DNA of 64,000 nucleotides from Candidatus Levybacteria bacterium RIFCSPHIGHO2_01_FULL_37_17 (GCA_001782035.1 MFNL01000001.1:277012-341011); one strand, 5' to 3'; positions 14,958 through 62,404 are shown, numbered from the stretch's first letter. Translations and numbers: made by a program. Notes: a model not told the origin generated them from the sequence alone.

Positions 14958-16616
14958 ATGAAAAAATGGAACTTGCTCCATCAAGTTGAAAGTCAAAATT
15001 CAAAAGTCAAAAACGATGATATTCTTGACATCCTTCTAGAGAACAGAGGAATTAAGACTAAAAAAGAAAAAGAAAATTTCCTTACCCCAAAATTTAAAGA
15101 AGTAACAATTGCTTCTGTGGAAATTGACAAAAAACACCTCAAAAAAGCAACAGCAAGAATTAAAAAAGCAATTAATAATAAAGAGAAAATAATTATTTTT
15201 GGGGATTACGATGTAGATGGAATAGCCGCATCTGCAATTCTTTGGGAAACATTAAATAATTTAGGGGCGAATGTTTTGCCTTATATTCCATCAAGATTTG
15301 AAGAGGGATACGGACTAAGCATTAAAGGAATTGATAATGTTCTTGCTCAAAATTCAGATTTAAAATTGATAATAACAGTGGATAACGGAATTGTCGCAAA
15401 CGTTGCAATTGATTATGCAAATAAAAAAGGAGTTGATGTTATTATTACAGATCATCATGTAAAACCTGTTAATTCTAAGCTTCCAAAAGCCTTTGCAATA
15501 ATTCATACTACGCTTCTTTGTGGCGCAGGCGTTGCATATTTTCTGTCAAAAGACTTAAAAAACGAGACAATTGATTTTCCTGACAGCCATCTAGAGCTTG
15601 TTGCGCTGGCAACTATTGCAGATTTAGTTTCGCTTAAGGATGGAAACAGGGTATTTGTTCGTTTTGGAATTGAGGCCTTGAGGAAAACCAAAAGACCGGG
15701 TCTTCTTTCGCTTTTTTCCAAGGCTGACATTGATAAAGATGAAATTGGTGTTTATCAAGTAGGCCATATAATTGCACCTAGATTAAATGCTATGGGAAGA
15801 CTCACGAATGCAATGGATAGCTTAAGACTCATTTGCACTTCCAGCGTGCAAAGGGCGAATGATTTAGCTAATACTCTGGCAAAGACAAATTTGGAAAGAC
15901 AAGAAATCACAGCGGGAACACTCGATCATGCCTTAAGCGGTGCAAAGAAAAACTTGCTTAAAAAATTAATTTTTATAGCAGACAAATCCTATAAAGAGGG
16001 TGTAATTGGTTTAGTCGCGGGCAGGCTAGTTGAAGAATATTATTTACCTTCTATTGTTATTTCAAAAGGCAAAAAATATAGCAAAGCCTCCGCAAGAAGT
16101 GTTTTAGGGTTCAATATAGTCGAGTTTTTAAGGGAAGCATCAGATTTACTTGTGGACGTAGGGGGACATCCTATGGCAGCAGGATTTACTGTGGAAACGA
16201 AAAACTTAGCAAAGCTGGAGAAATTTTTATATGAAAAGGTTTCAAAGCTTATTAGCAAAGATCATTTAGAACGCAAGCTAAATATAGACTTAATTTTACC
16301 TGAGGATTTAATAGGTTTGGATTTATATTCTTATATTCAAAAATTGTCTCCTTTTGGAATGGCAAATCCGGAACCTACTTTTCTTACACACAATTTGAGG
16401 ATCTTTGAAATAAAAAAAGTCGGCAGAGATGGCAAACATCTTAAGCTAAAATTAAATACTATTAATGGAGCGCGCCTTGATGCCATTGCGTTTGGAATGG
16501 GTGATTCTAAGTTAAAAATAGGAGATGCTATAAATGTTGTCTATACTTTTTCGGTAGATGAATGGAACGGAAATAAAAAGCTCCAGCTAAAAGTAAAAGA
16601 TTTTAAAACTATCTAG
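14958..16616 (+). CDS. recJ: single-stranded-DNA-specific exonuclease RecJ
   Basis: DHH family motifs (IIFGDYDVDGIAASAIL, ITDHHV), DHHA1 and C-terminal OB-like region. Confidence 0.85.
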   Translation: MKKWNLLHQVESQNSKVKNDDILDILLENRGIKTKKEKENFLTPKFKEVTIASVEIDKKHLKKATARIKKAINNKEKIIIFGDYDVDGIAASAILWETLNNLGANVLPYIPSRFEEGYGLSIKGIDNVLAQNSDLKLIITVDNGIVANVAIDYANKKGVDVIITDHHVKPVNSKLPKAFAIIHTTLLCGAGVAYFLSKDLKNETIDFPDSHLELVALATIADLVSLKDGNRVFVRFGIEALRKTKRPGLLSLFSKADIDKDEIGVYQVGHIIAPRLNAMGRLTNAMDSLRLICTSSVQRANDLANTLAKTNLERQEITAGTLDHALSGAKKNLLKKLIFIADKSYKEGVIGLVAGRLVEEYYLPSIVISKGKKYSKASARSVLGFNIVEFLREASDLLVDVGGHPMAAGFTVETKNLAKLEKFLYEKVSKLISKDHLERKLNIDLILPEDLIGLDLYSYIQKLSPFGMANPEPTFLTHNLRIFEIKKVGRDGKHLKLKLNTINGARLDAIAFGMGDSKLKIGDAINVVYTFSVDEWNGNKKLQLKVKDFKTI

Positions 16617-50432: not shown

Positions 50433-51350
50433 ATGGCAAAACTTTCAGCAGTAGTAAGCGTTTACAACGAAGAAAAAAATATTGAAAAATGTCTAAAATC
50501 CCTCCAGTTTGCTGATGAAATTATTGTAGTAGACAATGGTTCAACAGATAAAACTGCAGAAATTGTCAAAAAATATACAGATAAAATCTTTTCACAAAAA
50601 AACGAACCTCAAAAGATTGATATTCTCAAAAATTTCGGTATCGAGAAAGCTACTAGTGAATGGATACTTATTATTGACGCGGACGAACAGGTAACTCCCG
50701 AACTAGCCAACGAAATCCGTTCAATACTCAAAGAACAAAGAACAAAGAACAAAGAACAAATTACTGGTTATTGGATACCTAGAAAAAATTATATTTTTGG
50801 AAAATGGATTCAGAACGCTGGCTGGTATCCTGATTTACAGCTAAGGCTAGTAAAAAGGGGTAAGGGAAAATATAATTCATTACACGTCCATGAGCCCTTG
50901 AAAGTGGAAGGAGACACAAAACAGCTCTCGCAATTTATAAACCATAACAACTACGAAAATATTTCTCAATTTCTTTCTAAAACTGCTGTTTATGCCCGAA
51001 ATGAAGCGGATTCTATTTTAAAAAATGATTATAACTTTTCTTATCTTGATGCAATAAGGTTTCCAATAAAAGAGTTTTTAAGCAGGTTCTTTGCAAGAAA
51101 AGGATATAAAGACGGACTTCACGGATTAATGCTTTCAATGCTTATGGCTTTTTACCATTTTATCATTTTTGCCTTCATATGGGAGAAGAAGGGATTTACA
51201 GAAGAAAACGCCGATAATTTCCTAGAAGAGGTAGGCGCTGAACTTAAAAGAGGTGGAAATGAAATAGATTACTGGATAAAAAAAGAAAAATACGACAATA
51301 TAAAAAACCCTCTTAAGAGAAGCCTCGCAAAAATTAAAGGAAAAATATAG
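50433..51350 (+). CDS. GT2 glycosyltransferase (subfamily with YWIPRKNY...PDxQLRL motif), contains heptanucleotide SSR
   Basis: LSAVVSVYNEEKNIEKCL...IIVVDNGSTDKT, DAD motif (IDADEQ). Confidence 0.8.
   Translation: MAKLSAVVSVYNEEKNIEKCLKSLQFADEIIVVDNGSTDKTAEIVKKYTDKIFSQKNEPQKIDILKNFGIEKATSEWILIIDADEQVTPELANEIRSILKEQRTKNKEQITGYWIPRKNYIFGKWIQNAGWYPDLQLRLVKRGKGKYNSLHVHEPLKVEGDTKQLSQFINHNNYENISQFLSKTAVYARNEADSILKNDYNFSYLDAIRFPIKEFLSRFFARKGYKDGLHGLMLSMLMAFYHFIIFAFIWEKKGFTEENADNFLEEVGAELKRGGNEIDYWIKKEKYDNIKNPLKRSLAKIKGKI
50729..50760 (+). repeat. (CAAAGAA)x4.5 heptanucleotide tandem repeat inside GT2 coding sequence
   Basis: caaagaacaaagaacaaagaacaaagaacaaa read directly; in-frame as KEQRTKNKEQ; unit length not a multiple of 3. 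Confidence 0.85.
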
Positions 51351-57564: not shown

Positions 57565-58275
57565 ATGAAGTTATCCATTATCATTCCTGCTTTTAACGAA
57601 GAAAAAACAATTGTGCAGGCAATTAAACGTGTTGTAGAACAAAAAATAGATGGTGTGCAAAAAGAAGTAATAGTAGTAGACGACGGGTCAACAGATAATA
57701 CAGTGTTTAAGATTAAAGATCTAAGATCTAAGATTAAAGGTATAAAATTTTTCCAGCATAAAGAAAATTCAGGAAAGGGAGCTGCAGTTAGAACAGGAAT
57801 AAAAAACGCTAAAGGTAATTATATTCTTATTCAGGATGCAGATTTAGAATATCATCCTAAATATATAAATGATCTTATTAAGCCTATTGTGGGGAAAAAA
57901 GCAGATGTAGTTTATGGTACAAGAATAAAAAGATTCCCGAATTTAAAAGGGGAGGAAAAGACCTTGCAATTTCTGACACACTATTTAGGCAACAGATTTT
58001 TAAGTTTGGTAACGAGTATTTTATATGGGCAGTGGATTACAGATATGGAAACAGGCTATAAGCTTTTTCCTAAAAATGCGTTTTCAAAATTTACAATTCT
58101 AGCTAAAGGTTTTGAATTTGAACCTGAAATAACGGCTAAGCTGATGAAATCAGGGCACAAGATTTTAGAAATTCCGATAAAAACAGTTCCTAGAGGTTAC
58201 AATGAAGGAAAAAAGATTGATACAATAAAAGATGGATTAAAAGCATTAGTGCATTTAATTAAATATAGATTCTAA
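57565..58275 (+). CDS. GT2 polyprenol-phosphate glycosyltransferase (DPM1/CsbB-like)
   Basis: LSIIIPAFNEEKTI...VIVVDDGSTDNT, DAD (QDADLEY), 236 aa. Confidence 0.8.
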   Translation: MKLSIIIPAFNEEKTIVQAIKRVVEQKIDGVQKEVIVVDDGSTDNTVFKIKDLRSKIKGIKFFQHKENSGKGAAVRTGIKNAKGNYILIQDADLEYHPKYINDLIKPIVGKKADVVYGTRIKRFPNLKGEEKTLQFLTHYLGNRFLSLVTSILYGQWITDMETGYKLFPKNAFSKFTILAKGFEFEPEITAKLMKSGHKILEIPIKTVPRGYNEGKKIDTIKDGLKALVHLIKYRF

Positions 58276-61603: not shown

Positions 61604-62404
61604 ATGAAATTATCAATTGTTCTTTCAACGTTTAACGAAGAAAAAAACATGCCGGATTTTTTTGAAAACGTCAAAGATATTGCTGACGAAGTCATTTTAG
61701 TGGATGGAAGCTCTAAAGACAAAACAGTTGCAATTGCAAAGGAATACGGGGCTAAAATAAAAATTACAGATAACCCTCCAATATTTTTAATAAATAGGCA
61801 AAAAGCAATTGATATGGCAGATGATGGATGGCTTCTTAATCTAGATGCCGATGAAAGATTGTCACCAGAGCTTAAACAAGAGATAAGAGATAAGATAAAA
61901 GACATAAGTAAGCCTCTTAAATCTTCTGACTTAAATCATACTTCTGAAATCGCCGGTTACTGGATCCCCAGAAAAAATTTATTTTTAGGAAGGTTTTTAA
62001 TGAAAGGCGGACAATACCCCGACTATCAGCTAAGACTGTACAGGAAAGACAAAGTTCATTTTAAACTCGAGGACGTACACGAGCAGGCAATAGTAGAGGG
62101 TAAGACAGAATATTTACAAAACGCGATGCTGCATTATCCCTATTCTAATTTTTCCCACTATCTTAAAAAATGGAATGTTTATAATAACGCTTTAGCAGAC
62201 CAGATTACCAAAGAGCAAAAAACTAGAAATAGATTTCAAAAGGTCATCTATGGTTTTATGTACCTTTTGATAAAACCTTCCCACTGGTTGTTCACTACTT
62301 ATTTAAGGCATAAAGGTTTTATGGACGGCTGGCAGGGTTTTGTCTTCTCATTTTTTTCAGCACTTCGCTTTCCGGTTTCATACGTTTTATATTTGAGCAA
62401 ATGA
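61604..62404 (+). CDS. GT2 glycosyltransferase (YWIPRKN...PDYQLRL subfamily)
   Basis: LSIVLSTFNEEKNM...VILVDGSSKDKT, DAD (LDADER). Confidence 0.8.
   Translation: MKLSIVLSTFNEEKNMPDFFENVKDIADEVILVDGSSKDKTVAIAKEYGAKIKITDNPPIFLINRQKAIDMADDGWLLNLDADERLSPELKQEIRDKIKDISKPLKSSDLNHTSEIAGYWIPRKNLFLGRFLMKGGQYPDYQLRLYRKDKVHFKLEDVHEQAIVEGKTEYLQNAMLHYPYSNFSHYLKKWNVYNNALADQITKEQKTRNRFQKVIYGFMYLLIKPSHWLFTTYLRHKGFMDGWQGFVFSFFSALRFPVSYVLYLSK

Follow-up and report, generated by a model that had tools for sequence, protein, structure and literature searches.

A perfect heptanucleotide array lies in frame within a glycosyltransferase gene of the window, which is the whole 64-kb stretch of DNA analyzed in this study, and the linker in which it lies carries arrays of the same period in many related lineages. 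The reading favored here, held with a probability of roughly 0.55, is that the array is a slippage-born microsatellite, filtered by the reading frame, at a hot spot common to the family, and that in this species it is a latent or low-rate switch. Under this reading, slipped-strand mispairing would add and remove units, only frame-keeping copy numbers would persist, and consensus sequences would show in-frame states; the visible evolutionary output would be variants in linker length together with concerted evolution of the unit, and out-of-frame states would be transient loss-of-function by-products. In this species the array would be held at 4.57 units, as a frameshift site that is latent or used at a low rate. 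The original prediction had been of a phase-variation switch. Its anatomy, its gene class, and a history of slippage in relatives stand; variation in copy number does not, as no variant was found in the 16 loci that span the tract or in the protein collection searched. The anatomy of a switch is real and the hot spot notable, and the switch itself is probably latent or low-rate.

Host gene and linker

The gene that carries the array encodes a 305-aa protein identical to NCBI OGH03154.1 (Candidatus Levybacteria, Rifle aquifer). Its assignment to the GT2 family is based on the Pfam domain Glycos_transf_2 (PF00535; E=1e-21, 78 bits with a gathering cut-off of 23.3), the invariant D82-x-D84, and a predicted GT-A fold; none of the curated NCBIfam families reaches its cut-off for this protein. 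The predicted model (pLDDT 86) has a GT-A fold plus a C-terminal helical domain, and its best structural matches are SunS/ThuS (the closest), WrtF, TarS, and SpsA. The cluster is on one strand and encodes a PTPS-related membrane protein, a GT2, a Wzx-like flippase (Polysacc_synt_3), the tract-bearing GT2, two more GT2s, a GT1, YfhO, and further GT2s. From this content the cluster is predicted to be a surface-glycan locus, and it is by gene neighborhood (GT2s, flippase, GT1, and YfhO) that the product can be said to act on a surface structure, as the product of a contingency locus is expected to do.

The tract falls within the only region of the ortholog alignment that has no conservation, the segment between D82-x-D84-E85 and the motif G-Y/F-W-I-P-R-K-N, which varies in length from 20 to 42 aa among orthologs. 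In the model this linker (QVTPELANEIRSILKEQRTKNKEQIT) consists of a helix, residues 89-104, and a loop into strand 110-115, with the tract encoding the C-terminal end of the helix and the loop. The pLDDT falls to 72 in the linker, compared with about 95 on either side, and this is the sole local dip in the catalytic domain. Alignment and model together point to a permissive surface helix-end or loop that tolerates any sequence and any length in the observed range.

Table 1. Positions of the features discussed, unit-number products computed in silico, and linker arrays of related loci (window positions unless a locus is named)
Feature	Position	Strand	Context
GT2 glycosyltransferase gene, 305 aa	50433..51350	+	Pfam Glycos_transf_2; predicted GT-A fold and C-terminal helical domain
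DxD(E) catalytic motif D82-A-D84-E85	50676..50687	+	invariant in orthologs; upstream boundary of linker
Variable linker, residues 86-111	50688..50765	+	from ortholog alignment and structure model
Perfect heptanucleotide array (CAAAGAA)x4.57, 32 nt	50729..50760	+	inside GT2 ORF
Conserved GYWIPRKN motif	50766..50789	+	downstream boundary of linker
TAG met out of frame after +1 or -2 units	50780..50782	+	118-aa or 111-aa product
TAA met out of frame after -1 or +2 units	50842..50844	+	134-aa or 141-aa product
+1 unit, 5.57 copies			118 aa, truncated
-1 unit, 3.57 copies			134 aa, truncated
+2 units, 6.57 copies			141 aa, truncated
-2 units, 2.57 copies			111 aa, truncated
-3 units, 1.57 copies			298 aa, in frame
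+3 units, 7.57 copies			312 aa, in frame
Natural knock-out in L008, same species	50997 (L008 position 1843)	+	C to T, codon 189 CGA to TGA
TAAGATC x3.9, 85% (perfect core AAGATCT x2.7)	57708..57734	+	third GT2, 57565-58275, residues about 48-57
Decaying array AAGAGAT AAGAGAT AAGATAA AAGACAT AAG... (AAGAGAT x4.4, 83%)	61878..61908	+	GT2 paralog 61604-62404
AAAATCA x3.6, perfect array	L011 = L012 = L092		same linker
AAATTGG x4.7, perfect array	L015, 1790-1822		same linker
AATTCAG x3.7, perfect array	L020		same linker
CCACGAG x3.1, perfect array	L090		same linker
AGAACTC x4.9, perfect array	L180/L181		same linker
AAATCAG x4.9, perfect array	L182		same linker
Imperfect arrays	L183-186, L187/188, L101, L190		same linker

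Sequence of the tract

The tract (CAAAGAACAAAGAACAAAGAACAAAGAACAAA) has 100% matches at period 7 and reads CAAAGAA four times, then CAAA. Its TRF score of 64 is the highest in the window, and the runner-up among the perfect tandem repeats of the window, at 20 nt, is 12 nt shorter. The original prediction had placed about 4.5 copies of the unit in frame in this gene, encoding KEQRTKNKEQ, and this is confirmed, with 4.57 perfect copies encoding residues 100-109. The accompanying statement that no other non-triplet repeat occurs in a coding region of the window was wrong, as period-7 arrays are also present at 57708-57734 and 61878-61908, with a weak one at 14989-15012.

When KEQRTKNKEQ was recoded synonymously with the window's own codon usage, a perfect 32-nt tract was reached in 21 of 200,000 recodings. 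Since recoding so seldom yields the tract, the repeat belongs to the DNA level, and the peptide follows from it, not the reverse. Orthologs that encode the same peptide without a nucleotide repeat had been named as grounds for abandoning the switch, and none was found.

At 36% G+C the genome is AT-rich, and lysine and glutamate codons abound in the linker, features that favor reading the tract as a fortuitous low-complexity stretch; an assembly error would be a second way for it to be spurious. In random sequence with the base composition of the window, about 3e-10 runs of at least 25 consecutive lag-7 matches are expected per 64 kb. The identical tract is present in independent assemblies from JGI, ENA, and NCBI, and period-7 arrays recur at the linker site in many lineages. 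These three results refute chance and artefact, leaving them a negligible probability.

Effect of changes in unit number

Slippage products were computed in silico from the window sequence for 0.57-9.57 units (Table 1). As had been predicted, gain or loss of a single 7-nt unit shifts the frame of the GT2, and any change of one or two units truncates it before its acceptor half: the predicted short products retain the nucleotide-binding half but lack GYWIPRKN and all that follows it. Two features by which contingency loci are recognized are therefore present in the computed products, namely a non-triplet unit within the ORF and a change of one unit that abolishes the full-length product, with a further change restoring it. 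A shift between in-frame states three units apart passes most simply through OFF intermediates. Programmed ribosomal frameshifting was considered as well and rejected, as the CAAAGAA unit, read by eye, has no slippery site of the form X XXY YYZ.

Period-7 arrays across the family

For the ortholog loci, the DNA between the two flanking motifs (DxD and GYWIPRKN) was extracted and scanned for arrays. Perfect and imperfect heptanucleotide arrays were found in the same linker in several lineages, each with its own unit (Table 1). Those DNA-level arrays that were recovered by a route not biased to intact genes are all in frame. At the protein level, heptamer-only peptides (at least 7 aa, encodable only by at least three units of a 7-nt repeat) occur in 11 of 112 ortholog-cluster linkers, or about 10%, while shuffling within linkers gives an expectation of 0.022 per set and a maximum of 1 in 500 sets. 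The same peptide test applied to the 112 linkers gave none for periods 3, 4, 5, 6, 8, and 9, and chance level for period 10.

Linker lengths of orthologs have modes at 21/22, 25, 28, 35/36, and 42 aa, and all eight 28-aa linkers contain heptamer peptides; lengths that step by 7 aa are the pattern expected of three-unit (21-nt) steps. In a tree for which the linker had been masked, lineages with a tract are interspersed with others whose 21-aa linkers have none. Within subclades the units are one base apart, as in AAATCAA, AAATCAG, AACTCAG, and AATTCAG, and also in CCACGAG, CCACGCG, and CCACGGG. In one 90% cluster the length of the array is constant and its purity varies, with PQSTSHEPRA in one member and PRATSHEPRA in the rest. 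Together these patterns show that the linker arrays have been expanded, contracted, and re-homogenized many times, as a long-lived, slippage-driven microsatellite would be.

Three other interpretations of the family data were rejected. Tract-free linkers do not appear to be decayed heptamer arrays, as their lag-7 autocorrelation of 0.328 is no higher than that at lags 4, 9, or 12. The long tblastn spans that suggested insertions in L011, L012, L015, and L020 are merely extra matches in the neighboring GT2. A genome-wide bias toward heptamers was dismissed, as only weak, imperfect period-7 arrays occur outside GT2 genes.

The three strongest period-7 arrays of the window are all within GT2 genes. 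One of the two additional arrays, which is decaying, sits in the same linker, between DADE and GYWIPRKN, of a GT2 paralog; the other is in a GT2 of another subfamily, where it lies ahead of the DxD motif. The sole period-7 array of the window outside glycan genes (14989-15012) is a weak AAAGTCA x3.4 with 88% matches, near the 5' end of a recJ-like gene (14958-16616).

One account of the stepped lengths is that the in-frame product is itself selected. Each step of three units would lengthen or shorten the end of helix 89-104 by 7 residues, or about two turns, so the geometry of the donor and acceptor halves, and hence specificity, would be altered without rotating the face of the helix, and period 7 would be favored for this reason. 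Lengths that cluster at 21, 28, 35, and 42 aa, the position of the array at the helix end in the predicted model, and the in-frame state of every allele with a pure array (one with no internal stop or flanking indel) are all consistent with selection of this kind. However, linkers of 20, 22-27, and 36 aa are also common, so that a 7-aa step is not required, and a 21-nt duplication would suffice without any 7-nt period. The encoded peptides (KEQRTKN, KLEIGNW, PRATSHE, and NSELRTQ) also have no common property across lineages, and tuning of linker length is improbable as the explanation.

Several points count against the favored reading, of a frame-filtered microsatellite with a latent or low-rate switch. 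A purely passive microsatellite in a tolerant linker would be expected to show periods 3, 6, and 9 as well, and none was seen; in addition, arrays that are pure in many lineages imply that turnover goes on. The likely passage through OFF intermediates, the placement of the three strongest arrays of the window in GT2 genes, and the Logan contig breaks described below are further points of this kind. It is a possibility, considered doubtful, that the tract is an active contingency locus. Slippage would then occur at a high, selectable rate, and populations would mix ON cells (4.57 units) with OFF cells (3.57 or 5.57 units) that differ in surface glycan, for example against phage or in host attachment, with second-order selection for mutability keeping the hot spot across Levybacteria. 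A non-triplet SSR inside a surface-glycan glycosyltransferase gene is the classical signature of such loci, and the strongest support for activity is that the frame-breaking period is the only one seen at the linker site. Pure period-7 arrays persist or recur at this one site across many lineages and in the paralog, further arrays occur in other GT2 genes (window 57708; L015 2577-2610), and, with in-frame states three units apart, a lineage moving between them would cross OFF states.

Copy number within the species

Loci were looked up by the GT2 itself and by its two neighbors, which avoids a bias to intact alleles, in contigs from JGI, ENA, NCBI, and Logan. Rifle data sets in which the species occurs are SRR3989344, SRR2090153, JGI 3300002502, 3300025317, 3300025322, and 3300025323, the ANAN16 samples SAMN03842430, SAMN03842435, and SAMN03842437, and ERZ27254767 with its sister runs; of the other lineages, L180/L181 come from sample 3300014839 and L182 from SRR8676592. 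The tract is 32 nt in each of the 16 spanning loci that were retrieved (identity to the window 99.68-100%, with 0-13 substitutions per 3-7 kb and no gap), as read from consensus assemblies, which are blind to minority alleles. None of the nine predicted products for 0.57-9.57 units is present among about 15 billion proteins, and a search with the N-terminal half plus the tract returned no short product above 74% identity and none of this species. No member of the 90% cluster of the window protein, or of those of ten tract-bearing orthologs, differs by 7 aa in either direction or is truncated in the linker. The comparison of copy number among orthologs that had been proposed as a check therefore divides: length variants are absent within 90% clusters, and three-unit steps are present between lineages. 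A copy number that is fixed across up to 0.3% divergence, no predicted variant products on record, and no length variants among close relatives all count against an active contingency locus.

A single observation points in the other direction. In the Logan k=31 assemblies the GT2 gene is never intact, and the full-length protein has no Logan source while its neighbors have one. Contig L179 of SRR3989344 ends 30 nt into the tract (window 50758), contig L171 of the same read set starts 28 nt before the tract end (window 50733), and contig L172 of SRR2090153 starts 19 nt after the tract (window 50780). With one 32-nt allele only, no 31-mer would occur twice; the end of L179 is the exact stop expected if k-mers of a longer tract are present, and the start of L171 is 2 nt off that prediction. 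In another lineage a Logan contig runs through an array of 34 nt. The breaks at or near the tract are the sole hint of copy-number heterogeneity and are suggestive only, but they favor an active locus as far as they go.

Natural loss of function

Orthologs that have been knocked out were recovered by a short-query search, in which the query favors fragments that end near the linker; assemblies of mixed strains are also prone to error at a variable segment with conserved sequence on both sides. The only knock-out allele seen in the species of the window is that of L008, from one Rifle assembly, which has a nonsense mutation at codon 189 and an intact tract. P0121 and P0122, two short members of the 90% cluster, were considered as possible tract frameshifts, but the cause is the nonsense mutation at codon 189.

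Three further alleles are from other lineages. L187 (about position 2790) differs from L188 (about position 530) by the deletion of one T just upstream of an imperfect five-unit array, AACATTATCC compared with AACATATCC; the two are of the same strain, with 655 nt aligned without a mismatch, and the deletion puts the GT2 of L187 out of frame. L189 has a frameshift in its 38-nt linker, both halves of the gene being open, and has no close relative for comparison. L190 (1191-2126) has an in-frame TAG inside a decayed heptamer array, mid-contig, that leaves ORFs of 111 aa and 198 aa, with a GTG start 3 nt after the TAG; this split gene may be a pseudogene or encode a two-piece enzyme. An out-of-frame tail is also present in P0161, for which the evidence is a protein sequence.

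The idea that OFF alleles arise by changes in unit number fails for all four alleles with DNA, which have a nonsense mutation, a 1-nt deletion, a linker frameshift, and an in-frame TAG, respectively. A perfect array that slips orders of magnitude faster than point mutation would make a slip the expected route to loss, so the nonsense mutation of L008 beside an intact tract counts against the high, reversible switching rate expected of a contingency locus, about 1e-5 per generation or more, although it is one data point for the species. As judged from these sequences, the GT2 gene is dispensable in some natural populations, which is in keeping with an active locus; the lesions themselves, one of them in this species despite a perfect array, are not.

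Comparison with known phase-variable systems

The precedent of Neisseria glycosyltransferases that had been invoked is sound. In Neisseria meningitidis and Neisseria gonorrhoeae, the pilin-glycan galactosyltransferase gene pglE is phase-varied by an intragenic heptanucleotide repeat (PMC7157529). Both repeats have a 7-nt unit in the coding sequence of a surface-glycan glycosyltransferase, where a change in unit number shifts the frame and turns the enzyme off, and this likeness adds to the case for an active locus. However, switching of pglE has been demonstrated in carriage isolates, with all phasotypes seen, whereas the CAAAGAA tract has no observed variant; the host of the window is an uncultured CPR bacterium with an array of 4.57 units, and the likeness drawn here is one of repeat anatomy.

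Haemophilus influenzae has (TGAAAGA)13-38 in the promoters of hmw1A and hmw2A, (AATTTTG)14 inside hmw1A, and (AACAACC)1-13 at or in a TonB-dependent receptor gene (PMC2651432). Unit length is 7 in both cases, the unit differs between loci, and unit number puts ORFs in or out of frame. The H. influenzae repeats typically have 6-38 units, vary among strains, and are in several cases in promoters, while the linker arrays have 3.1-4.9 units and are invariant among strains. In the Campylobacter phasome, as described with PhasomeIt, poly-G tracts keep their position in glycosyltransferase genes for capsule and LOS from one species to another (PMC6321876). The linker arrays resemble these in that an SSR occupies a homologous position in glycan genes of related species and several SSR-bearing glycosyltransferase genes occur per cluster; the Campylobacter tracts differ in being homopolymers, not heptamers, and in having documented variability.

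With respect to length, at least 5 copies are needed for units of at least 4 nt to be called phase-variable, although mutability is a continuum according to the authors of that cut-off (PMC6321876). The tract, with 4.57 copies, is below this value and below the 6-38 units of H. influenzae (PMC2651432), so it falls short of the range shown to be hypermutable, and the earlier remark that four to five copies is at the low end for slippage was correct. The limit applies to the family, as no array exceeds 4.86 units in any lineage examined, far below the known heptanucleotide switches, and this again counts against an active locus. Lin and Kussell (2012) found that coding SSRs occur in segments that tolerate indels, that variability rises with tract length, and that mutable types of repeat are usually avoided mid-protein (PMC3315296). 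The SSR of the window is likewise placed where the protein tolerates indels; it differs in that a non-triplet unit recurs mid-protein in about 10% of the orthologs, at one site devoid of arrays with a triplet period. Its position one third of the way into the gene, and not near the 5' end, is a further point against active switching when compared with that survey.

Significance of the hot spot

Genomes in the CPR (Patescibacteria) are small, most members are uncultured, and they are believed to live in attachment to other cells. The literature search turned up no account of phase variation by SSRs in this group. It is possible, though less than an even prospect, that a position-conserved heptanucleotide contingency locus is common to Levybacteria and their relatives, with a unit particular to each lineage and further copies in neighboring GT2 genes. 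If so, it would produce reversible OFF states and, with every third unit, ON isoforms that have linkers 7 aa longer or shorter; it would also give the Candidate Phyla Radiation its first described SSR phasome, one that varies the surface glycans of tiny, probably host-attached cells.

The hot spot is a lead whether or not this copy switches, given that period 7 is the only period seen, that about a tenth of orthologs, the paralog, and other GT2 genes are involved, and that length differences come in 7-aa steps. With the coordinates fixed and the read sets public, switching in an uncultured phylum becomes countable from reads. For the evolution of microsatellites, the question raised is why a frame-breaking period alone is tolerated in a coding linker, and a tract that proved stable would still illustrate, cleanly and in nature, how a coding microsatellite evolves in concert under a reading-frame filter.

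Possible exchange and rearrangement around linker arrays

Several loci have unusual structures at or near the linker. Within one 90% cluster (members more than 90% identical), P0027 and P0129 have a linker wholly different from that of P0128, EPRATGNGPRAGVN compared with GRRSSLSENHKSEVN, and the P0128 linker GRRSSLSENHKSEVN resembles the linker of P0120. The difference suggests that the linker has been exchanged by recombination. L057 (864-1746), an ortholog with 72% identity and from the same sample as the species of the window, has a match that stops at residue 99, with the linker end GVINKKNKHIFRSIKN*. Truncation linked to the tract, or an inversion, was considered for this locus and rejected; the 580 nt downstream of its linker match nothing in the cluster, and L057 is probably a junction or rearrangement, or else an assembly chimera.

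In L015, the adjacent GT2 gene has a second array (2577-2610), CAATTTC x4.9, which is in frame and encodes SNFQFPISNLK. This array and the linker array of L015 are exact reverse complements. The two form an inverted repeat of 33 nt, with arms about 755 nt apart on either side of the gene junction. Such an inverted repeat is not expected from independent slippage and could have arisen by recombination or inversion between the tracts. In L058, a distant GT2 homolog is separated by 100 nt from the start of another GT2-like ORF, and an octanucleotide array (AAATTTTC x4.6, 2324-2360) lies within this gap, a location that, as judged from the sequence, would correspond to that of a promoter-type SSR.
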